Positions 49,116-59,829 of a DNA stretch of 64,000 nucleotides are shown here, piece by piece. The stretch is from Planctomycetota bacterium (GTDB lineage Bacteria > Planctomycetota > UBA1135 > UBA2386), in assembly GCA_016872675.1 (NCBI GenBank), contig VGZG01000001.1:77182-141181 (forward strand), in the 5' to 3' direction. The notes under the pieces are model-generated. The model was not told the DNA's origin. It did no database searches and saw only the letters and a list, made by a program, of their open reading frames with translations. The position numbers and the translations under genes were made by a program. The stretch's first letter is position 1; every line of letters begins with the position of its first letter.

Positions 49116-50237
49116 TCACCAGTCCAGCAGCGAGAAGACCCAGGTGAACGCCGCGTCGAGCGCGACCAGCGCGAACAACACGACGACGACCGCCGAAGTG
49201 GTCGAGCGGCCGACGCCGTCGGCGCCGCCGCGAGTGGCGAGGCCGCGCTGGCAAGCGATCAAGCCGATGGCGATCCCAAACACGATGCTCTTCATCAAGC
49301 CGGTGCCGATGTCGAGCATGTCGATCCACTGCTGAAACACCTGCACGTAGACGACGGCCGGTTGCTGCAGATAGCCGACGGCGATCGCCATGCCGCCGAG
49401 CGTGCCGAGGAAGTCGCCGACGATGGTCATCGCCGGCACGACCACCACCATCGCCAGCACGCGCGGGAACACCAGGAAGCGCTGCGGGTCCTGGCCGAGC
49501 GTGCGCAGCGCGTCGATCTCCTCGTTGACCGTCATCGTGCCGAGCTCGGCGGCGTACGCCGCGCCCGAACGGCCGGTGATCAGGATCGCGGTCATCAGCG
49601 GGCCGAGTTCGCGCACCACCGACAATCCGACGAGGCTCGCCAGGAACTGGTCACCGCCGAAGCGGTGTAGCTGGATCGCGCCCTGCAGGCCGAGGATCGC
49701 GCCGACCAGGAAGTTGATCAGCATCACGATCGGCAGGCCGTCGGCGCCGGCGCGCTCGACCAGCAGGCCGAACTCGCCCATGTGCACGGTGCGCGGCTGG
49801 CGGATCGCGCGACCGACGCTCCAGACCAGGTCGCCGAGGAAGGCGAGGATCGCCTGCGTCGTGCGCCACGTGTCGTGCGCGAAGTCGCCGACGTCGCCGA
49901 GCAACGACGACGGCGCCGGATCCGGTTCGTCGCCCGCGCCGTGGCGCGCACTGTCGTACAGGGCGAGAAGGTGCGCGACTTCGCCGGTCGCGCCGACGAA
50001 GCGGAACGGCCGGCCGCCGCGCGCCCAATTGGCGCGCACCGCCTGCAGCAGCGCCGCCGCGCCGCCGTCGAGCCGCGCGACACCGGCGAGGTCGATGGTC
50101 GCCGCCGTGGCCCCGGCCAGCGCCTGCCGCAGCTCCTGCCACAACGCCGCGCCGTCGGCGAGCGTGACCGAGCCGGTGAGCGAGACCCGGCGCTCGGCGC
50201 CGTCGTCGCGGGTCAGCGAATAGCCGGTGGGCGCCAT
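49116..50237 (-). CDS. mlaE: MlaE-type ABC permease with N-terminal STAS (MlaB-like) domain
   Basis: The first ~95 aa resemble an anti-sigma-antagonist/STAS fold (SLTGSVTLADGAALWQEL...IDLAGVARLDGGAAALL). The remainder is MlaE (GPLMTAILITGRSGAAYAAELGTMTVNEEIDAL). Confidence 0.87.
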   Translation of the reverse strand: MAPTGYSLTRDDGAERRVSLTGSVTLADGAALWQELRQALAGATAATIDLAGVARLDGGAAALLQAVRANWARGGRPFRFVGATGEVAHLLALYDSARHGAGDEPDPAPSSLLGDVGDFAHDTWRTTQAILAFLGDLVWSVGRAIRQPRTVHMGEFGLLVERAGADGLPIVMLINFLVGAILGLQGAIQLHRFGGDQFLASLVGLSVVRELGPLMTAILITGRSGAAYAAELGTMTVNEEIDALRTLGQDPQRFLVFPRVLAMVVVVPAMTIVGDFLGTLGGMAIAVGYLQQPAVVYVQVFQQWIDMLDIGTGLMKSIVFGIAIGLIACQRGLATRGGADGVGRSTTSAVVVVLFALVALDAAFTWVFSLLDW

Positions 50238-50398
50238 CGGTGCCGGGGTCAGCCCTTGCCACCCTTGCTGGCGCGCGGCGCCGGGGCGGCGATGGTCGGC
50301 CCGGTCGCGCGCGCCGGCGCAGTCGCTGCTGCCGCCGCGGCGTCGAGGCGGTCGCCGAGCCGCACGCAGCGGACGTCGCGGCGCATCGCGTCCTTGCC

Positions 50399-50419
50399 GA
50401 TCATGCCGCGATCATGCCG
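50399..50419. promoter_or_regulatory. Tandem direct repeat GATCATGCCG-C-GATCATGCCG in the mlaE / MFS divergent region
   Basis: Exact 10-nt repeat with 11-nt period. It lies 78-98 nt upstream of the MFS start codon. Confidence 0.25.
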
Positions 50420-50496
50420 ACGGCAGCGCGCTGGCGCACCTACGAACCCGATGGCCGAATGCTTGCCCGCCGCGCCGCCGCGGCGACACTGCGGCG

Positions 50497-51786
50497 ATGG
50501 CGGCGCCCGCTGTTCCCCACTCGACGCAGGGACGACTGCGCGCCGCCGCATGGGTCCTGTACGACCTCGCCAACACCGTCTACGCGGCGACGCTGACGTT
50601 CCTGTTCACGCCGTACGTCAAGCAGGCGCTCGGCGACGACCTGCGCGGGCTCGGCCTCGTGCAGTTGGCCTCGATGGCGCTCGCCGGCCTGTTGGTGCCG
50701 GTGTTCGGCGCGCTGCTCGACCAGACCGCGCGCACGCGGGGCTACCTGACGATCGCGACGCTGCTGTGCATCGCCGCCACGGCCGCCTTCGGCGCCGACG
50801 TCGCACCGGGCTGGCTGCTGGCGTTCTTCTTCGTCGCCAACGTCACCTACAACCTCGGCCTGCTGTTCTACAACGCGCTGCTGCCGGCGGTCGCCGCGCC
50901 CGGCAGCGAAGGCCGGCTCGGCGGGCTCGGCACCGGGCTTGGCTACTTCGGCACGATCGTCGTGCTGGCGGTGCTGGTGCCGCTGCCGGTCGACGACGCG
51001 ACGCGCTTCCCGCTGGCGGCGCTGCTGTTCCTCGTCACCGCCGCGCCGTGTCTGCTGCTGGTGCGCGACCCGCGCCGGCCGCGCGGCAACGGCTCGGTGG
51101 CGGCGGTGCGCGCGGCCTTCGCGCGACTCGGCGCGACCCTGCGCGACCTGCCGCGCCAGCGCGCGCTGCTGTGGTTCCTGATCGGCAACTTCTGCCTCGT
51201 CGACGTGCTCAACACGGCGGTGCTCTACTTCGCCGACTTCACCACCTCGGTGTTCCAGAACGCCGCGGCGCTGGGCCCGCTGCAGTTGCTCGGCGTCGAG
51301 TTCGCCGGCGCGAACGCGATGCGCGACTTCGTCATCGTGCTCGGCCTGCTGCTCAACGGTCTCGCGCTCGTGTTCGGCATCGTGCAGGGCCGGCTCAGCG
51401 ACCGCGCGCCGCTGCGGGTGATGCGCAGCAGCGGCTTCGCGCTGCTGGTGGCGCTCGTCGGCGGGGCGCTGTTCGGCGGCCGCTCCGAGCTCGGCTACGC
51501 GCTCACGCTCGTCGTCGCCGGCGCGTACGGCCTCGCCGGCGTCTGGACCGCCGGCCGCACCGTCGTCGTGCTGCTGGCCCCGCCTGATCGCGTCGGCGAG
51601 TACTTCGGCCTCTACGGCATCACCGTCAAACTGTCGGTCGTCGGCAGCGCCGTCTACGGTTTCGTCGAATACTACGCCGGCGCCAAGCCGGCGATGCTGG
51701 CACAGAGCGCACAGCTGTTGATCGGCCTGCTGTGCCTCGCCATGGTGCGCGTTCCCGCCACGCCGCCAGCGGCTACCGCCCGATGA
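50497..51786 (+). CDS. MFS transporter (UMF1/Atg22-like family)
   Basis: Start ATG 50497. 12 TM segments. WVLYDLANTVYA opening is typical of the UMF1 family. Confidence 0.83.
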   Translation: MAAPAVPHSTQGRLRAAAWVLYDLANTVYAATLTFLFTPYVKQALGDDLRGLGLVQLASMALAGLLVPVFGALLDQTARTRGYLTIATLLCIAATAAFGADVAPGWLLAFFFVANVTYNLGLLFYNALLPAVAAPGSEGRLGGLGTGLGYFGTIVVLAVLVPLPVDDATRFPLAALLFLVTAAPCLLLVRDPRRPRGNGSVAAVRAAFARLGATLRDLPRQRALLWFLIGNFCLVDVLNTAVLYFADFTTSVFQNAAALGPLQLLGVEFAGANAMRDFVIVLGLLLNGLALVFGIVQGRLSDRAPLRVMRSSGFALLVALVGGALFGGRSELGYALTLVVAGAYGLAGVWTAGRTVVVLLAPPDRVGEYFGLYGITVKLSVVGSAVYGFVEYYAGAKPAMLAQSAQLLIGLLCLAMVRVPATPPAATAR

Positions 51787-52772
51787 CCGCCGACGATGAC
51801 ACGCCTGCCCGCGCGCCGCGCGAAGCGCTGTGGCAGCGCGCCGCCGTTGGCGTCGTCGCCGCACTGATCGCCGCGATCGGCGCGCTGCCGACGGCGCTCG
51901 CGTACGGCTTCGGCACGCTGCTGGCCGTGCCGTGGTTCCTGTGGTGGTGCGTCACCGACCGCGGCGGCCGCAGCAGCAGCGGCTACTGGCGCAACTGCCG
52001 CATCGTCTTCCGTCCTGGCTCGCCGCTCGGCCCGACGCGGCCGCCGCGGCACCTCTGGCGCTGGTCGCAGCACATCGCCTGGATCGTCATCGACTTCTGC
52101 CGCATGCGCCGGATCACCGCAGCCAACGTCGCGCAGCACGTCGACCTCGTCGAGTTCGCGCGAATGCGGGCCGCCTTCGACCAGGGCAAGGGCCTGATCT
52201 GCGCCACCGGCCACATCGGCGTCTGGGACGTCGCCGGCCACGCCACCGTGCTGCTCGGCATACCGCTGACTAGCGTGTTCCGGCCAAGCCCGCTGCCGGC
52301 GCTCAACCGGCTGATCGAGCGGCTGCGCACCGGCGCCGGCCAGACCGTCGTCGCGCGCAAGAACGTCCTGCGCACGCTGCTCAAGGTGCTCGGGCGCAAA
52401 GAGGCCGTCGGCATCCTCACCGACGGCGGTGGCAAGCACAGCGCCGTCGAAGCGCCGTTCCTCGGCACCGCCTCGCAAACCGTCGCCAGCCCAGCGCTGC
52501 TGCACCTCGCCACCGGCGCGCCGATCGCCGTCGTCGCCGTGCTGCGTACCGGACCGATGCGCTACCGCATGCGCGTGCTCGACGTCATCGCCGACGCCGG
52601 CACCGGCGACCGCGAAGCCGACATGCTGGCGATCACGGCGCGCATCAACCGCGGCCTGACCCAGGCGATCGCCGAGGCGCCCGAGCAGTGGTTCTGGCAG
52701 GGACGGCGGTTTCGCCACCAGCCGCGGGGCGAGACGCCCGGGCCGGACGGACTGCCGCCGCAGGCAGGGTGA
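51783..52772 (+). CDS. Lipid A biosynthesis (LpxL/HtrB-type) lauroyl/LPLAT-family acyltransferase
   Basis: ATGA overlap with the MFS gene. N-terminal TM. Catalytic block ATGHIGVWDVAG (H-X4-D, compare HxGNWE). ILTDGGG block and C-terminal PEQWFWQGRRF (family PEQYxWxHRRFK-like). Confidence 0.8.
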   Translation: MTADDDTPARAPREALWQRAAVGVVAALIAAIGALPTALAYGFGTLLAVPWFLWWCVTDRGGRSSSGYWRNCRIVFRPGSPLGPTRPPRHLWRWSQHIAWIVIDFCRMRRITAANVAQHVDLVEFARMRAAFDQGKGLICATGHIGVWDVAGHATVLLGIPLTSVFRPSPLPALNRLIERLRTGAGQTVVARKNVLRTLLKVLGRKEAVGILTDGGGKHSAVEAPFLGTASQTVASPALLHLATGAPIAVVAVLRTGPMRYRMRVLDVIADAGTGDREADMLAITARINRGLTQAIAEAPEQWFWQGRRFRHQPRGETPGPDGLPPQAG

Positions 52773-52815: not shown

Positions 52816-52852
52816 CCTTCACGGCCCCTTCACGGAAGTCACTCGGTGACTT
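52816..52852 (+). promoter_or_regulatory. Candidate Pho box: CCTTCACGG direct repeat (11-bp phase) plus adjacent palindrome AAGTCAC-TCG-GTGACTT
   Basis: CCTTCACGG at 52816-52824 and 52827-52835. Perfect 7-bp inverted repeat at 52836-52852. The whole element lies 64-100 nt upstream of the pstS ATG. Confidence 0.4.
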
Positions 52853-52915
52853 AACGCAGCCAACGATGCTGCTGTGGCGCATTTGCGTTCAGCCCACCCC
52901 CCAGAGACCCACCGC

Positions 52916-53770
52916 ATGAAGCTCGCCCTCACCCTCGCCTCCGCCTGCCTCGTGACCGTCGCCTGCGGCGGCGGCAAGAAGGAGATCCAGAACCTCGGCT
53001 CCGACACCATGCTCGAGGTCGCCGGCGCGCTCGCCGAGGCCTACCAGAAGGTCAAGCCGGAGGTCATCGTCTCGGTGTCCGGCGGCGGCTCGGGCGTCGG
53101 CATCGCGGCGATGATGTCCGGCGACGTCGACATCGCCAACAGCAGCCGCAAGATGAAGGAGAAGGAGGAGGAGGAGGCGAAGAAGCACGGCTACTCCCCC
53201 ACCCACACGTCGATCGGCTACGACGGCATCGCGATCTACGTCCACAAGGACAACCCGCTCAAGGCGGTCACCATGGCGCAGCTCAAGGAGCTCTTCGGCG
53301 ACGGCGGCAAGGTCGCCAAGTGGAGCGACCTCGGCATCGACCTCGGCGGCGACGCCGACAAGGTCGTGCTCGCCAGCCGCCAGAACAACAGCGGCACGTA
53401 CGAGTTCTTCCGCGAGGCCGTGCTCGGCGGCGACAAGGGCCGCTTCAAGCCGGAGTGCAACAACCTCAACGGCAGCAAGGACGTCGTCGACTTCTGCGCC
53501 AAGACGAAGAGCGCGATCGGCTACAGCGGCATCGCCTACGCCACCGACCAGGTGCGCGTGGTCCCGGTGATCAAGGCCGACGGCGCGCCGGCGGTCATGC
53601 CGACGGTCGACAGCGTGCTCGACGGCAGCTACGCCATCCGCCGCCCGCTCTACATGATCACCAAGGGCGCCGCGACCGGCGACACCAAGGACTACCTCGA
53701 CTGGATCGTCGGCGACGCCGGCCAGAAGGTGCTCCAGGACAAGGGCTACATCCCGCTGCGCAAGCTATGA
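52916..53770 (+). CDS. pstS: Phosphate ABC transporter substrate-binding lipoprotein
   Basis: Start ATG 52916. Lipobox LASACLVTVAC. PBP blocks GSDTMLEVAG, VSGGGSGVGI, NSGTYEFF, GYSGIAY. Confidence 0.93.
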   Translation: MKLALTLASACLVTVACGGGKKEIQNLGSDTMLEVAGALAEAYQKVKPEVIVSVSGGGSGVGIAAMMSGDVDIANSSRKMKEKEEEEAKKHGYSPTHTSIGYDGIAIYVHKDNPLKAVTMAQLKELFGDGGKVAKWSDLGIDLGGDADKVVLASRQNNSGTYEFFREAVLGGDKGRFKPECNNLNGSKDVVDFCAKTKSAIGYSGIAYATDQVRVVPVIKADGAPAVMPTVDSVLDGSYAIRRPLYMITKGAATGDTKDYLDWIVGDAGQKVLQDKGYIPLRKL

Positions 53771-53836: not shown

Positions 53837-54949
53837 GTGCCGCCGGCCGCCGTCGCGGCCGGCACCCCTGACCCATCGAGACTCCCCACCGTGTCCCACT
53901 ACGAAGAACGCCTGCAGCGCGATCTCAACTGGATCCAGGACCTCGTCGGCATCGTCGGCCAGGCGGTGACCAAGGCGATCGACGACGCGGCGACGTCGAT
54001 CCTGCGGGTCGACAAGGACCTGGCGGCGGAGACCGTGGTCGGCGACTACACGACCAATCGCCAGACCCGCGAGCTCGACCGCCTCTGCCACGCGTTCGTC
54101 GCCCGCCACCTGCCGAGCGCCGGCCACCTGCGCTACGTCTCGGCGGTGCTGCGGCTCAACATCGCGCTCGAGCGCATCGGCGACTACGCCGCGACGATCT
54201 CGCGCAGCGCCGCGCAGTTGACGGCGCCGCCCCCAGCCGTGGTCGCGCGCAACATCGAGATGATGTGCGAGCAGGCGCGCCGCATGCTGGCCGAAGGCAT
54301 GCGCAGCTTCCAGCACAAGGACGTCGCGCTCGCCAACAACACGCTCGCGTCGGCAGCGCAGTTCGCCCGCCACTTCGACAAGGTGTTCGCCGACCTGGTC
54401 AAGGAAGGCGAGGCCGACAGCCGCCCGGTTGCCGAGTTGTTCTCGCTGATGGCGACGCTCAACCGCCTCGAGCGCGTCATCCACCAAGCCAAGAACATCT
54501 GTGAGGAGACGATCTTCGTCGCCAGCGGCAAGACCAAGGGCGAGAAGACCTTCCAGATCCTGTTCGTCGATGCCAAGAACAACGGCCTGAGCCAGCTGGC
54601 CGAGCACTTCACGCGCAAGGCCTTCCCGCAGAGCGGCCGCTACCGCAGCGCCGGCTGGGACGCCGCCGAGGAGGTCGATCCGGCGTGGGGCCGCTTCGGC
54701 CAGACGGTCGGCGTCGACCTGCAGAAGGCATGGCCGACGCCGCTGGCGTCGCTACTGCCGCAACTCGACGATTACCAGATCGTCGTCGGCTTCGGCAAGG
54801 AAGCGCGCGACAAGGTCGGCCGCGTGCCATTCCACACTACGATGCTCATCTGGGACGCGCCGACCGGCGACCCCGAGACGGCGTACCGGAGCCTGACGCC
54901 GAAGGTCCGCGAGCTGATGGAGCGCCTGCGCGGCGAACAGGCGAGCTGA
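53837..54949 (+). CDS. phoU: PhoU-domain protein fused to a degenerate low-molecular-weight phosphatase/ArsC-like domain
   Basis: N-terminal two-repeat PhoU (LERIGDYAATI; LNRLERVIHQAKNICEE). C-terminal ~135 aa: FQILFVDAKNNGLSQLAEHF...YRSAGWD...YQIVVGFG...LIWDAP. An alternative GTG start at 53891 (VSHYEERLQ) is likely. Confidence 0.85.
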   Translation: MPPAAVAAGTPDPSRLPTVSHYEERLQRDLNWIQDLVGIVGQAVTKAIDDAATSILRVDKDLAAETVVGDYTTNRQTRELDRLCHAFVARHLPSAGHLRYVSAVLRLNIALERIGDYAATISRSAAQLTAPPPAVVARNIEMMCEQARRMLAEGMRSFQHKDVALANNTLASAAQFARHFDKVFADLVKEGEADSRPVAELFSLMATLNRLERVIHQAKNICEETIFVASGKTKGEKTFQILFVDAKNNGLSQLAEHFTRKAFPQSGRYRSAGWDAAEEVDPAWGRFGQTVGVDLQKAWPTPLASLLPQLDDYQIVVGFGKEARDKVGRVPFHTTMLIWDAPTGDPETAYRSLTPKVRELMERLRGEQAS

Positions 54950-54951
54950 CC

Positions 54952-55902
54952 GTGGCCGCGAACGCGTACCCGCCGACCGCGCCGCCGGGCCAGCCCGCAT
55001 GGGCGGCGGCGCTAGACACGCGCAACAGCGCGTGGTGGCAGGACCTCGTCATGCGTGTCGTTGTCATGGCCGGCGGCATCTCGGCGATCTTGTTCATCGT
55101 CGCGATCTTCGGCTTCATCGCCAGCCAAGGCATCGAGTTCATCGTCCACCGCCTCGACCTCGGCGCCCTGCTGACCGGCGTGCGCTGGGAGCCGACGGTC
55201 GAGCCGCCGAGCTACGGCGCACTGCCGCTGATCGCCGGCACGGCGTTCATCACGCTCGTTGCGATGGCGATCGCCGTGCCGCTGGCGTTCGGCGCCGCGG
55301 TCTACGTCGGCGAGTTCGCGCGCGGCAAGCAGCGCGAGTGGCTCAAGATCGGCATCGAGCTGCTGGCGGCGATCCCGTCGGTCGTCTGGGGCGTCATCGG
55401 CCTGCACGTGATGAAGCCGGTCATCCAGGACCTGTTCGGCGTCCAGGTCGGCCTCAACGTGCTCAACGCCGGCATCATCCTCGGGCTGATGGCGGCGCCG
55501 ATCATGGCGACGATCGCCGAGGACGCGCTCAAGGCCGTGCCCGACACCTACCGCGAAGCCGCGGAGTCGCTCGGCGCGACCAAGTGGCAGGTGGTCTGGA
55601 AGGTCGTGCTGCCGCACGCGCGCCCCGGCCTGTCGGCCGCCGTGCTGCTCGGCATCGGCCGCGCCTTCGGCGAGACCATCGCCGTGCTGATGGCGAGCGG
55701 CCATCGGCTGATGATCCCGGAGAGCATCTTCGACTCGGCCGCGACGCTGACGGCGACGATCGCCGCCGAGCTCGGCGAAGCCGCGGTCGGCGGCGACCAC
55801 TACCAGGTCCTGTTCGTCCTCGGGATGCTGCTGTTCGTCATCACCTTCGCGATCAACCTGACGGCCGACTGGATCGTGCGCGGCCGGCGGAGGCAGGCAT
55901 GA
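54952..55902 (+). CDS. pstC: Phosphate ABC transporter permease PstC
   Basis: GTG start 54952. EAA-type loop and PstC blocks (LPLIAGTAFITLVAM, REAAESLGATKWQVVWKVVLP). Confidence 0.92.
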   Translation: MAANAYPPTAPPGQPAWAAALDTRNSAWWQDLVMRVVVMAGGISAILFIVAIFGFIASQGIEFIVHRLDLGALLTGVRWEPTVEPPSYGALPLIAGTAFITLVAMAIAVPLAFGAAVYVGEFARGKQREWLKIGIELLAAIPSVVWGVIGLHVMKPVIQDLFGVQVGLNVLNAGIILGLMAAPIMATIAEDALKAVPDTYREAAESLGATKWQVVWKVVLPHARPGLSAAVLLGIGRAFGETIAVLMASGHRLMIPESIFDSAATLTATIAAELGEAAVGGDHYQVLFVLGMLLFVITFAINLTADWIVRGRRRQA

Positions 55903-56783
55903 CCGGCGCCAATCCGTTCGCGCCCACCTCGCTCGAAGGCCGCAGCCTCGCCAGCCAGGGCGTCGCCAAGGCCGGCTTCCTGGTGATCACGCTGCTGCTG
56001 CTGATCCCGGCGCTCGGCATCGTCGGCGTGCTGCTGGTCGAGGGCTGGCCGGGGATGACGCTGTCGTTCCTCCTCGAGAAGCCGCGCGAGAACGGCGCCG
56101 CCGGCGGCATCGCCACGGCGCTGGTCGGCACCATCTGGCTGACCGCCGTCGCGCTCGTCGTGGCGCTGCCCGTCGGCGTCGCCGCCGCGATCTACCTCAG
56201 CGAGTACGCGCGCGACAACTGGCTGACCCGCACGATCAACGTCGCCATCGTCAACCTCGCCGGCGTGCCGTCGATCGTGCACGCGCTGTTCGGTGTCGGC
56301 GCCTTCGTGCACTTCCTGCAGTTCGGCAAGTCGATCCTGGCGGCGAGCTGCACGCTCGCGGTCATGACGCTGCCGGTCGTGATCGTCGCCACCCGCGAGT
56401 CGCTGCAGGCGGTGCCCAAGGCCTTCCGCGAGGCGACCTGGAACCTCGGCGCGACGCGCTGGCAGACCATCTGGCGAATCGTGCTGCCGAACTCCGGCAG
56501 CGGCATCCTGACCGGCCTGATCCTCGTCGTCTGCCGCGCCGTCGGCGAGACCGCGCCGATCATGTTCACCGGCGCCGTGTTCTTCCGACAGCTGTTCCCC
56601 AACGGCGTGTTCGACAAGACCATGGCCTTGTCGCTGCACCTGTTCAACGTCTCGACGCAGGTCACCAACGTGCCGCGACACGTGCCGTTCGCCGTCGCGC
56701 TGACGCTGATCCTGGTCGTGCTGTCGATGAACGCGCTCGCCATCTGGTTTCGCATGCGGCTGCGCGGGAGGAAGAAGTGGTGA
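55899..56783 (+). CDS. pstA: Phosphate ABC transporter permease PstA
   Basis: ATGA overlap with pstC. PstA blocks (GGIATALVGTIWL, FREATWNLGATRWQTIWRIVLP, GETAPIMFTG). Confidence 0.92.
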   Translation: MTGANPFAPTSLEGRSLASQGVAKAGFLVITLLLLIPALGIVGVLLVEGWPGMTLSFLLEKPRENGAAGGIATALVGTIWLTAVALVVALPVGVAAAIYLSEYARDNWLTRTINVAIVNLAGVPSIVHALFGVGAFVHFLQFGKSILAASCTLAVMTLPVVIVATRESLQAVPKAFREATWNLGATRWQTIWRIVLPNSGSGILTGLILVVCRAVGETAPIMFTGAVFFRQLFPNGVFDKTMALSLHLFNVSTQVTNVPRHVPFAVALTLILVVLSMNALAIWFRMRLRGRKKW

Positions 56784-57565
56784 CCGCCGGCCCGTCCCCC
56801 GTTGCGGCGCCGCCGGCGCTGCTCACCGTGCGCAACCTGTCGATCCGCTACGGCGACAAGGTGGCGCTCCAGGGCGTCGACCTCGACGTCCGGCCCAACG
56901 AGATCGTCGGCATCATCGGCCCGGCCAACGCCGGCAAGACGTCGTTCCTGCGCGCGCTCAACCGCATGGACGCGCTCGTGCCGGAGATGCAGGTCGACGG
57001 CACGATCACCTTCGCCGGCCGCGACCTGCGCGACGTGCGCAACCTGTACGCGCTGCGCAGCCGCATCGGCGTGGTGTTCCCGCTGCCTGTCGGCCTGCCG
57101 CTGTCGATCTACGACAACGTCGCGCTCGCCCCGCGCCTGCGCGGCGTCAAGGCCAGGTCCGAGCTCGACGGCATCGTCGAACGCAGTCTGCGGCGCGCGG
57201 CGCTCTGGGACGAGGTCAAGGACCGCCTCAAGAGCCTCGGCTCGCTGCTCAGCGGCGGCCAACAGCAGCGCCTGACGATCGCGCGCGCGTTGTCGCAGGA
57301 GCCGGAGCTGCTGCTGCTCGACGAGTTCTCGATCGCCATCGACCCGGTGACGACGATGCGCATCGAGGAGGTGCTCAAGGAACTGCGGCAAGAACTCAGC
57401 ATCGTGCTGGTGACCAACCTCGTGCAGCAGGCGCGCCGCCTCGCCGCGCGCACCGCCTTCTTCCTCGGCGGCCGATGCGTCGAGATCATCGCGACCGAGC
57501 TCCTCTTCAGCGGCGGCGCCAAGGACCAGCGCACGATCGACTACCTGGAGGGACGCTTTGGCTGA
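56777..57565 (+). CDS. PstB paralogue with degenerate catalytic loops (Q-loop Gln to Pro, H-loop His to Asn) but canonical LSGGQQQRL signature
   Basis: Co-linear with PstB, including the C-terminal DYLEGRFG. Walker A GPANAGKTS (56918-56944). VVFP in place of MVFQ (CCG 57080-57082). LSGGQQQRL (57248-57274). LLLDEF. VTN in place of VTH (AAC 57416-57418). Confidence 0.9.
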   Translation: MVTAGPSPVAAPPALLTVRNLSIRYGDKVALQGVDLDVRPNEIVGIIGPANAGKTSFLRALNRMDALVPEMQVDGTITFAGRDLRDVRNLYALRSRIGVVFPLPVGLPLSIYDNVALAPRLRGVKARSELDGIVERSLRRAALWDEVKDRLKSLGSLLSGGQQQRLTIARALSQEPELLLLDEFSIAIDPVTTMRIEEVLKELRQELSIVLVTNLVQQARRLAARTAFFLGGRCVEIIATELLFSGGAKDQRTIDYLEGRFG

Positions 57566-58376
57566 TTCCTTGTCCCTGAAGACCCGCACCACGATCCTCA
57601 ACCTGCCCAGACACCGGGCGCCGGCGATCGAGGTGCAGGACCTGAGCCTCTGGTACGGCACGTTCCAGGCGCTGCACGACGTCACGCTGACCATCAAGTC
57701 GGGCATCGTCACGGCGCTGATCGGCCCGTCCGGCTGCGGCAAATCGACGCTGCTGCGCTCGTGCAACCGCATCAACGAGCGCCTGGGCTACGTCTCCACC
57801 ACCGGCACCGTCAAGGTGCTCGGACACGACGTCTACGGCCCCGAGGCGTCGGCGATCCAGGTGCGCCGCCACGTCGGCATGGTCTTTCAGCGGCCCAACC
57901 CGCTGCCGCTGTCGATCCGCGACAACGTGCTGTTCAGTCATCGCCTGCACGCCGAGCGCAAGGCGACACGAGCCGAGGAAGAAGCGATGCTCGAGCAGGC
58001 GCTGCGCGAGGTGCTGCTCTGGGACCGCGTCAAGGACCGCCTCGACCGCAAAGCGACGGTGCTCTCGCTCGAAGAGCAGCAGAAGTTGTGCATCGCGCGC
58101 CTACTGCCGACCAAGCCGTCGGTGCTGCTGATGGACGAGCCGTGCAGCGCGCTCGACCCCGAGGCGACACGCGCCGTCGAAAACCTGATCTGGGACCTGC
58201 GCGGCCACTACTCGATCCTGATCGTCACCCACAACATGGCCCAGGCCCGCCGCGCCAGCGACGAGTGCGTGTTCATGCTGATGGGCCGCGTCGTCGAGCA
58301 CTCCGAGACCGAAGACATGTTCGTCGCGCCGCAGAAGCCGGAGACCTCGGAATACATCGAGGGCCGCTTCGGCTGA
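57558..58376 (+). CDS. pstB: Phosphate import ATP-binding protein PstB (canonical Walker A/B, Q- and H-loops; degenerate signature LSLEEQQKL)
   Basis: TTG start with GGAGG 6 nt upstream. GPSGCGKST, MVFQRPNPLP, LSLEEQQKL (58062-58088), LLMDEPCSALDP, VTHNM, C-terminal EYIEGRFG. Confidence 0.92.
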   Translation: MADSLSLKTRTTILNLPRHRAPAIEVQDLSLWYGTFQALHDVTLTIKSGIVTALIGPSGCGKSTLLRSCNRINERLGYVSTTGTVKVLGHDVYGPEASAIQVRRHVGMVFQRPNPLPLSIRDNVLFSHRLHAERKATRAEEEAMLEQALREVLLWDRVKDRLDRKATVLSLEEQQKLCIARLLPTKPSVLLMDEPCSALDPEATRAVENLIWDLRGHYSILIVTHNMAQARRASDECVFMLMGRVVEHSETEDMFVAPQKPETSEYIEGRFG

Positions 58377-58458
58377 CGGCGCGCGGCGACCGCCGAACGC
58401 TTCCGCCGACCTGCAGGTGGCCGGGCCGGCGGCCGTCGCGCTATCCTGCGCGGCCCCG

Positions 58459-59829
58459 ATGAACGCGCTGCCGCTGCTGCTCCTGTCCCTGTCCGTCGCC
58501 CTGCCACAGGGGCCGGACGAGGCGATCGCCACCTACCAGCTCGACGGCCGCACGCTGCCAGTGACGCGCACCGACGTGGCGCTCGAGATGGCCTTCCACC
58601 TGCGGCGGCGCGACCGCGGCCAGCAGGCCGTCGAACAGCTCGTCGCGGTGACCATCACGCGGCAGGCCGCCGAGGCGAAGAAACTGATGCCGGCCGAAGC
58701 CGACGTGCGGGCGTTCTGGACCGACCTGCAGGAGCAGTTGCGCGCCGCCGGCCGCCGGCCGGAGGACATCCCCGCCGTGCGCAACACCGGTGAGGCGCAG
58801 TGGCTCGCCGACCTCGCCGTGCAATTGGCGCAGAAGCGCGTCGTCCGCCAGGAGCTCGGCCTGAAGGCCGACGAGGAGGTCAGCGGCGACATGCTGACGC
58901 TCTGGCTGCAGGAGCAGCGCAAGAACGCGCTCGTCGTCACCGACCCCGACCTGCTGCCCGCCGGCGCAGTGGCGCGCGTCGGCACGACCGAGATCCCGCT
59001 GATCGAGCTTGGCCTGTTGCTGCTGCGCACCGCCGAGGACGACGAGCGCGACCGCTTCGTCAAGCAAGTCGTCTACCTCGCCGCGCTCGAGGCGGCGGCG
59101 CGCAAGGACGGCGTGCAGGTCACCGCCGCCGACCTCGACGCCGCCGTGCAGAAGCACAAGGACGACGCGCAGAAGGACCCGCGCTACCGCGGCGTCACCT
59201 ACGAGAACCTGCTCAAGGCCGAGGGCCTGACGCCGCAGTCGATCCGCGACCTGCGCGTCTTCCGCGGCCAGATCCTGCTCGACAAGCTGGCGCGCCTGCG
59301 CTTCCGCGACGCCGACCTCGCGGCCGAGCTACAGGACAACCGCCAGGCCGTGCGCGACCGCCACGGCGCGCGCCGGCGCCTGGGCCTCATCTACCTGCGC
59401 GCGCTCGACGAACCCAACCCGCTGGCGCCGCGCACCATGGCCGACGCCGAGCGCGAGCTCGGAGCGGCGCGCGAGCGGCTGCAGAAGGATCCGTTCGACG
59501 TCGTCGCCCGCGTCGTCAGCGAGCACAACGCCAGCAAGGCCCAGGGCGGCGACGCCGGCTGGCACCGACGTCGCTCCGACAATATGCCCGATGCGGTGCT
59601 CGCCGCGGCATTCGCGCAGGCGGCCGGCGACGTCTCGGCGCCGGTCCGCGTCGACGACGGCGTGACGCTGGTGAAGACGCTGGAGATCGAACCCGAGCCG
59701 GACGACGCGACGCTGCGACAGCGGCTGCGCGAGGGCAAGCAAAAGGATCTGCAGAACCAGCTATTCGACGCCTGCAAGCTGACGGTGGCAAAGACGTCTG
59801 CGCCGACGCCGACGAAAGGACGCAAGTGA
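58459..59829 (+). CDS. Secreted parvulin-type peptidyl-prolyl isomerase (SurA/PrsA-like chaperone)
   Basis: Start ATG 58459 (MNALPLLLLSLSVALP). C-terminal parvulin block SEHNASKAQGGDAGWHRR...MPDAVLAAAFAQAAGDVSAPVRVDDGVTLVK. Confidence 0.75.
   Translation: MNALPLLLLSLSVALPQGPDEAIATYQLDGRTLPVTRTDVALEMAFHLRRRDRGQQAVEQLVAVTITRQAAEAKKLMPAEADVRAFWTDLQEQLRAAGRRPEDIPAVRNTGEAQWLADLAVQLAQKRVVRQELGLKADEEVSGDMLTLWLQEQRKNALVVTDPDLLPAGAVARVGTTEIPLIELGLLLLRTAEDDERDRFVKQVVYLAALEAAARKDGVQVTAADLDAAVQKHKDDAQKDPRYRGVTYENLLKAEGLTPQSIRDLRVFRGQILLDKLARLRFRDADLAAELQDNRQAVRDRHGARRRLGLIYLRALDEPNPLAPRTMADAERELGAARERLQKDPFDVVARVVSEHNASKAQGGDAGWHRRRSDNMPDAVLAAAFAQAAGDVSAPVRVDDGVTLVKTLEIEPEPDDATLRQRLREGKQKDLQNQLFDACKLTVAKTSAPTPTKGRK

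Follow-up and report, generated by a model that had tools for sequence, protein, structure and literature searches.

A PhoU protein fused to an ArsC-fold domain devoid of catalytic residues in a Pst cassette shared by at least five bacterial phyla

The phoU fusion gene and its distribution

We analysed a window of 64,000 nucleotides from a Planctomycetota bacterium (GCA_016872675.1, contig VGZG01000001.1, positions 77,182 to 141,181 of the forward strand; coordinates below are those of the window), in which a phosphate transport (pst) operon carries a fused phoU gene. The operon comprises six genes in the order pstS, phoU::LMWP, pstC, pstA, pstB1, pstB2 (Table 1), and the product of the second gene joins a PhoU protein to a C-terminal domain with the fold of low-molecular-weight phosphatases (LMWP) and arsenate reductases (ArsC). 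The preliminary description of this locus, made from the letters of the sequence, had called the position of phoU between pstS and pstC non-canonical. We confirmed this, and the position is conserved in relatives: among 59 species-representative genomes the order of the six genes is identical in every locus of sufficient length. The carriers comprise more than 50 species-level metagenome-assembled genomes (MAGs) from at least five phyla, namely Planctomycetota, Acidobacteriota, Myxococcota, Gemmatimonadota and Pseudomonadota, and the labels of these MAGs include Vicinamibacterales, Thermoanaerobaculia, Acidobacteriota, Myxococcales, Gemmatimonadota, Longimicrobiales and Pseudomonadales. When the loci are compared between phyla, sequence identity amounts to 62-77% for the permeases and ATPases, 35-49% for the PhoU part and 34-46% for the LMWP-like part. 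Within the phylum of the window the domain is carried by scattered members (13 of the 201 species representatives). The source genome, which is 95% complete, has no PhoU besides the fusion and no Pst system besides the cassette, so that the fusion must serve as PhoU in this organism. Of 11 other carriers, 3 likewise have no second PhoU, and the remainder have an additional canonical pstB-phoU locus.

The family to which the fusion belongs (hereafter D-type) is large. A word-indexed search yielded 172 clusters, nearly all of about 354 aa and mainly from Planctomycetota MAGs held in NCBI, JGI, ENA and Logan. When 1.8 billion representatives were searched exhaustively with a profile, 639 matched at E<=1e-3, among them 199 with E<=1e-10; the best 150 of the 639 matches are overwhelmingly about 350-366 aa long, with the domain at residues ~213-360. 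The length of most relatives lies nearer to the 352 aa that would result from the in-frame GTG at codon 19 (53891) of the window gene than to the full open reading frame. In the databases the members are labelled ‘PhoU domain-containing’, ‘phosphate transport system protein’, ‘protein-tyrosine-phosphatase’ or ‘hypothetical’, and annotation pipelines assign them only ‘PhoU’ or ‘hypothetical’. Members are frequent among uncultured Planctomycetota and are also present in at least four other phyla. More than 170 clusters from the four sources contain the same single frame, as do 11 further genomes of the phylum and over 50 MAGs assembled independently. This excludes for all practical purposes that an assembly or frameshift error joined two separate genes, and upholds the earlier view of the gene as a genuine fusion.

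The two domains of the fusion protein

For the N-terminal part, which had been described as a normal two-repeat PhoU, profile and structure comparisons agree. Pfam PF01895 was matched twice within residues ~21-230 (E 7.5e-21, 74.8 bits against a cut-off of 23.5) and again twice in a genome-wide search, and TIGR02135 was matched over residues 25-232 (profile positions 2-210 of 212) with 124.2 bits, just below its equivalog cut-off of 130.25. The AlphaFold2 model has a predicted local distance difference test (pLDDT) of ~95 across the PhoU domain and shows the six-helix fold of two three-helix bundles; in a Foldseek search of the PDB this half aligned to Pseudomonas aeruginosa PhoU 4q25 with a template modelling (TM) score of 0.91 and to 1t72 with 0.89. 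A profile built from 47 full-length relatives matched the PhoU structure 1t72 at 1e-24. The first PhoU metal motif is kept (E112-RIG-D116). The second (residues 212-223, window 54470-54505) reads E212-R-V-I-H216-Q-A-K-N-I-C222-E in place of the usual E-R-I-G-D-H-A-T-N-I-A-E, with H216, Q217 and C222 invariant throughout the D-type family, and E212-xxx-H216 may form an altered metal site adjoining the fused domain. The protein thus shares with canonical PhoU (E. coli; 4q25 from P. aeruginosa, 1t72 from A. aeolicus) the two repeats, the six-helix bundle and the location in a pst operon. It differs from it in the extra C-terminal domain of ~135 aa, in the place of its gene between pstS and pstC instead of after pstB, and in the E-xxx-H form of the second metal motif.

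The window’s own copy of the C-terminal domain (136-139 aa) gave no match to Pfam LMWPc (PF01451) even at E<=1 and weak ArsC matches in NCBIfam (TIGR02691, 16.5 bits against a cut-off of 174), and its homology is therefore based on family profiles and structure. With phmmer the copy found the ArsC structures 3t38 at 2e-5 and 1y1l at 9e-4 in the PDB. The full-length profile of the 47 relatives matched a series of LMWP-type arsenate reductases along their entire length, namely 1y1l (2e-8) and the ArsCs of B. subtilis, Synechocystis and pI258, and the profile of the domain alone returned the same ArsC series, with 1y1l at 1.4e-8. Of the two Pfam families that the preliminary description expected, PF01895 was found as described above; PF01451 was missed in the window copy and recovered in 24 of 27 family members scanned singly (best 2.3e-6), the window copy being among the three misses. 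AlphaFold2 with the family alignment produced a two-domain full-length model (pLDDT 89.8, predicted TM score 0.76), and the domain-only model reached a pLDDT of 90.2, falling to ~75 in the last block that includes the LRGEQAS tail. The best Foldseek matches of the C-terminal model in the PDB were arsenate reductases including 1jf8, 3rh0 and 3t38 (TM 0.74-0.82, E ~5e-9), followed by protein tyrosine phosphatases of low molecular weight (LMW-PTPs) such as Wzb, YwlE and YfkJ. The LMW-PTP/ArsC assignment of the preliminary description is thereby borne out, and the fusion of an LMWP/ArsC fold (residues ~239-365) to a two-repeat PhoU can be regarded as confirmed. An RpiB/PTS-IIB-like identity of the Asp-bearing loop was considered and dropped, since the top structural and profile matches were all ArsC or LMW-PTP. 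As a side observation, the source genome has a single canonical LMWPc domain elsewhere (85 bits, contig C96, G000:C96:7802-8230, L007), inside an open frame of 377 aa, and this domain may be part of a larger protein.

Catalytic residues were mapped by HMMER alignment of the window domain to ArsC structures. D245 (GAT, 54569-54571) takes the place of the nucleophile Cys10 and L251 (CTG, 54587-54589) that of Arg16, the oxyanion clamp; G250 corresponds to Cys15 of the P-loop, of which Asn13 and Ser17 are kept as N248 and S252. The D-X5-L-S loop with loss of the catalytic Cys and Arg, as first noted from the sequence, is thus reproduced by the alignments, and the codon coordinates given for Asp and Leu were exact. 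Residues other than Cys likewise stand in place of the resolving Cys82 and Cys89, and the window’s domain contains no cysteine at all. At the general-acid position in the D-P loop the window has Pro342, with D340 close by, and 85 of 115 close relatives have Asp. Compared with thioredoxin-coupled ArsC (S. aureus pI258 1jf8; B. subtilis 1jl3; C. glutamicum 3rh0, 3t38), the domain shows the same fold, P-loop Asn and Ser, SAG motif and strand order; it differs in Cys10→Asp, Arg16→Leu, the lack of Cys82 and Cys89 and the fusion to PhoU. Loss of the equivalents of Cys10, Arg16, Cys82 and Cys89 leaves neither the phosphatase-like first step nor the thioredoxin-coupled disulfide relay possible, and judged by these residues the domain is a pseudoenzyme without capacity for Cys chemistry.

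The change at the nucleophile position is not sporadic. Asp is found there in 109 of the 115 close members and in ~85% of the alignable rows among ~130 divergent clusters (50% identity level), where the other residues are mostly Glu; Gly occurs in some members. Its presence in close and divergent members alike indicates that Cys→Asp is ancient and family-defining. In the divergent clusters Asn at +3 is kept in most and the +7 position holds Ser, Gly, Ala or Thr. Arg itself is hardly ever found at its position, and the residues at the two P-loop positions before Ser vary freely (G/C/L/R/S at one, A/P/L/Q/W at the other). Among the 115 close relatives the conservation of the domain equals that of the PhoU part; conserved stretches are F-V-D-x-x-N-x-G-x-S-Q-L-A-E-H-F-T-R-K-A-F-P-Q-S-G-R-Y-R-S-A-G-W, W-P, P-F-H-T-T, W339 and the C-terminal L-R-G-E-Q-A-S, and G366 of the tail is 96% conserved in the broad family. 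This pattern, with PFHTT, WP, SAG and LRGEQAS among many invariant elements, indicates that the C-terminal domain is under strong purifying selection. The domain could also be regarded as an evolutionary relic, an ArsC that decays after fusion and has no present role, as the lost catalytic residues and the failure of Pfam to detect the window copy might suggest. A relic would hardly be full length and confidently folded (pLDDT 90), with dozens of invariant residues over more than 100 clusters and retention in at least five phyla with no truncated forms, and we give this explanation very little credence. A comparison of charge and pI of the C-terminal domains revealed no functional signal.

The PstB pair, related fusions and the proposed role of the domain

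The two pstB genes at the end of the cassette show complementary alterations. PstB1 has a perfect LSGGQ signature and Walker A/B motifs, with changes in the Q-loop (Gln→Pro, VFPLP), the H-loop (His→Asn, VTNL) and the D-loop (SALD→IAID). PstB2 is canonical in Walker A/B, Q-loop, H-loop and D-loop and has the degenerate signature LSLEE. This pattern is kept in 55 of 55 PstB1 and 52 of 52 PstB2 orthologs, and across phyla PstB1 and PstB2 are 67-77% identical; the single PstBs of non-carrier genomes from the same phylum read VFQ, LSGGQ and THN. In the phylum sample the PstB1/PstB2 pair adjoins the fused PhoU in all 11 carriers, whereas all 12 non-carriers have one canonical PstB only, 41-51% identical to PstB1. 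In a dimer of ATP-binding cassette (ABC) proteins each ATP site is formed by the Walker, Q- and H-loop motifs of one subunit and the signature of its partner. Given this rule, the complementary substitutions leave one consensus site, composed of the PstB2 catalytic motifs and the PstB1 signature, and one degenerate site, so that the pair is predicted to form an asymmetric heterodimer with one dead ATP site. Such complementary substitutions are the textbook signature of ABC transporters with one degenerate nucleotide-binding site. To our knowledge a degenerate ATP site has not been described in Pst, and a literature search found no such site. Two adjacent pstB paralogs in one operon also occur in E. 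faecalis (pstB1/pstB2); in the tandem pstB genes of Firmicutes both copies have identical motifs (PMC12096839).

Two further kinds of PhoU-LMWP fusion were found, both in ordinary pstS-pstC-pstA-pstB-phoU operons with one pstB (loci L115:6001-7116 and L114:6001-7113, and L113 below). Type A retains an intact ArsC-type domain. An example from Planctomycetota (L113, 1397-2515, minus strand, G076:C4) is a 372-aa protein with ILFLCVRNAARSQMAE, TLCAEEIC and WAMPDP, encoded after a single canonical pstB. The architecture is present in ~55 clusters that are named only ‘PhoU’, from Burkholderiales and Phycisphaerae MAGs, with the loop C-V-[HR]-N-[AS]-A-R-S; the median number of Cys is three, and the PhoU motif has the canonical form ERIGDHATN. 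Type S is a small group with Ser in place of the nucleophile (S-x5-R-S), in which the Arg is kept and Cys is absent. Type A and S fusions (e.g. L113, P0305, P0326) resemble the D-type in their two-domain architecture, their length of 365-378 aa and their location in pst operons. They differ from it in that they keep ERIGDHATN, follow a single canonical pstB and have an LMWP domain that clusters with ordinary ArsCs; type A moreover retains C-x5-R-S plus two more Cys. In a tree of the domains (FastTree, and a quick IQ-TREE search with approximately unbiased (AU) test) the D-type forms one clade on a long branch (Shimodaira-Hasegawa support 99). Type S is nested in type A, which falls together with the ArsC domains of fusions to glyoxalase-like or ArsR partners. 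A topology that unites all PhoU-fused domains in one clade was not rejected by the AU test (p 0.56), and the fusion may have arisen once, with C→S and C→D changes afterwards. With an intact site (C), a trapping-like one (S) and a dead one (D), the LMWP domains on PhoU would represent a clean series from enzyme to pseudoenzyme, one that links arsenate detoxification to the phosphate importer, the entry route of arsenate.

We lean, by a narrow preference, to the reading that the fusion is the PhoU subunit of a distinct cross-phylum Pst subtype and that its pseudo-ArsC domain acts as a non-catalytic docking or regulatory module. The subtype has four linked derived characters and appears to be previously undescribed, its component families and pseudoenzyme domains as such being already known; a literature search found no description of a PhoU-LMWPc or PhoU-arsenate reductase fusion, in agreement with the preliminary description, which was aware of none. 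The PhoU bundle would perform the usual task of PhoU, reading the ATPase state of PstB and restraining PhoR/PhoB signalling and transport. The C-terminal domain, descended from a thioredoxin-type (LMWP-fold) arsenate reductase, would tie PhoU to the asymmetric PstB1-PstB2 ATPase, possibly via the invariant C-terminal tail. Asp245 probably imitates the thiolate in carrying a negative charge and keeps the P-loop fixed in a stable form free of ligand, in the way that the Cys→Asp exchange does in PRL. In the PRL phosphatases, the best precedent for such a change, this exchange keeps a thiolate-like charge, abolishes catalysis, retains tight CNNM binding and increases stability by 8-10 degrees C (PMC8728433). 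PRL (PTP4A) proteins, which act on the CNNM mediators of magnesium transport, are comparable as Cys-phosphatase-fold proteins that regulate transport by binding and not by catalysis. They are, however, eukaryotic and have a different PTP subfamily fold, they retain the P-loop Arg, which is needed for CNNM binding, and their Asp form is an engineered mutant, whereas Asp is the natural state in PhoU::LMWP. As for the partner of the domain, interaction of PhoU with both PstB and PhoR has been reported (references cited in PMC12096839). Together with the observation that the fusion occurs solely alongside the degenerate PstB pair, this favours a docking role on the ATPase, and with low confidence we name the asymmetric PstB pair as the partner and PhoR as the less likely one.

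Several points weigh against a docking module of this kind. The cross-phylum identity of the C-terminal domain (34-46%) is below that of PstB1/PstB2 (67-77%), which is not an obvious fit to a tight PstB interface. Asn248 and Ser252 of the P-loop are kept, and some binding of a small ligand in a remodelled pocket is conceivable. The retained Arg of type S hints that oxyanion binding without catalysis matters in some PhoU-LMWP fusions, and Asp as a nucleophile is chemically possible in principle.

The preliminary description had suggested a built-in sensor or adaptor module. As an oxyanion sensor, the degenerate P-loop would bind phosphate or arsenate and report cytoplasmic phosphate to PhoU. 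The ancestral fold binds oxyanions, the P-loop backbone geometry is kept along with Asn248 and Ser252, and type S, which loses the nucleophile and keeps the Arg, shows the classic pattern of binding without turnover. In the D-type, however, the Arg is lost in nearly all members, including nearly all of the ~130 divergent ones, an acidic side chain lies where the anion would sit, and the two neighbouring P-loop positions vary freely, unlike a conserved ligand site. A carboxylate in the P-loop cradle together with the loss of Arg argues against binding of phosphate or arsenate in the old site; the suggestion is thereby weakened and we consider it unlikely. Alternatively the domain might be an active enzyme with new chemistry, using Asp245 as nucleophile or base, e.g. 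as a phosphatase acting on PhoB~P, PhoR~P or an acyl-phosphate. The conserved Asp at the nucleophile position would allow this, as would the retained Asn and Ser and the frequent general-acid Asp (85/115), but the Arg that would stabilise the transition state is missing, no metal-binding motif such as Asp-nucleophile phosphatases need is evident, some members have Glu or Gly at the Asp position, and in PRL the same exchange abolishes catalysis. We therefore judge an active enzyme very improbable.

Returning to the docking module, the joint linkage of the PhoU domain, the gene order and the PstB asymmetry leads to the expectation that PhoU and PstB meet at a defined, asymmetric interface. The way in which PhoU senses the state of Pst and relays it to PhoR has long been an open problem in bacterial phosphate signalling, and the cassette provides a natural handle on it, with three joint changes: the pseudoenzyme domain of PhoU, the move of its gene to mid-operon and a predicted asymmetric PstB heterodimer with one dead site. 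A bolder form, which we put forward as a doubtful possibility, is that the D-type cassette represents a new ABC importer architecture with PhoU as a permanent stoichiometric subunit. Its pseudo-ArsC domain and LRGEQAS tail would be docked on the degenerate PstB1 side and would have been recruited from an ancestral transporter-tethered type A arsenate reductase that once detoxified arsenate entering via Pst. If PhoU were hard-wired to the PstB1 side in this way, the single active ATP site would be linked to the regulator and Pho signalling would be read from one face of the transporter.

Further features of the locus

The coordinates of the cassette and of the elements within the fusion gene are collected in Table 1. 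The likely true start of pstS is the ATG at 52913 (MKLALTLASACLVTVAC...), and pstC likely starts at the GTG at 54952, 3 nt past the phoU stop. The repeat and palindrome ~60-100 nt upstream of pstS are a plausible candidate for a PhoB site.

Table 1. Features of the pst cassette and the phoU::LMWP fusion gene in the window
Feature	Position	Strand	Remarks
Putative Pho-box-like element 5' of pstS	52816..52852	+	CCTTCACGG twice at 11-bp phase, then inverted repeat/palindrome AGTCACTCGGTGACT
pstS, periplasmic phosphate-binding lipoprotein	52874..53770	+	Pfam PBP_like_2, E 1.3e-38; first gene of the cassette in all relatives
phoU::LMWP-like fusion gene	53837..54949	+	370 aa, stop-free; 352 aa from alternative GTG start 53891
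PhoU domain, six-helix bundle, residues 21-230	53897..54526	+	PF01895 x2, TIGR02135, Foldseek
LMWP/ArsC-fold domain, predicted pseudoenzyme, residues 239-365	54551..54931	+	Four-stranded parallel beta sheet with flanking helices
P-loop equivalent D245-A-K-N248-N-G-L251-S252	54569..54592	+	HMMER alignments to ArsC structures
C-terminal tail L-R-G-E-Q-A-S, nearly invariant; candidate docking motif	54926..54946	+	Conservation across relatives
pstC, permease	54952..55902	+	Pfam BPD_transp_1; spacing matches relatives
pstA, permease	55899..56783	+	Pfam BPD_transp_1
pstB1, degenerate ATPase subunit	56777..57565	+	Q-loop, H-loop, D-loop altered; LSGGQ intact
pstB2, catalytic-type ATPase subunit	57558..58376	+	Walker A/B, Q-loop, H-loop canonical; signature LSLEE

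On another contig of the source genome (C104, L075:599-2519) the start of a PhoR/PnpS-like histidine kinase gene (278-299 bits) is overlapped by the gene for a PhoB-like response regulator (243 bits, TIGR02154). Both proteins score under the equivalog cut-offs, and the fused PhoU probably has this pair as its partner in signalling.

Directly 5' of pstS a gene for a major facilitator superfamily (MFS) transporter overlaps a lipid-A-type acyltransferase gene (window 50227-52772), and the same pair also precedes the cassette in the distant relative GCA_050245995.1 (L005:3631-5948). On the other side, 3' of pstB2, lies a gene for a SurA/PrsA-like parvulin peptidyl-prolyl isomerase (window 58417-59829). 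It is not part of the cassette, since relatives have other genes after pstB2, with PriA in one locus (L003) and a methyl-accepting chemotaxis protein in another (L005).

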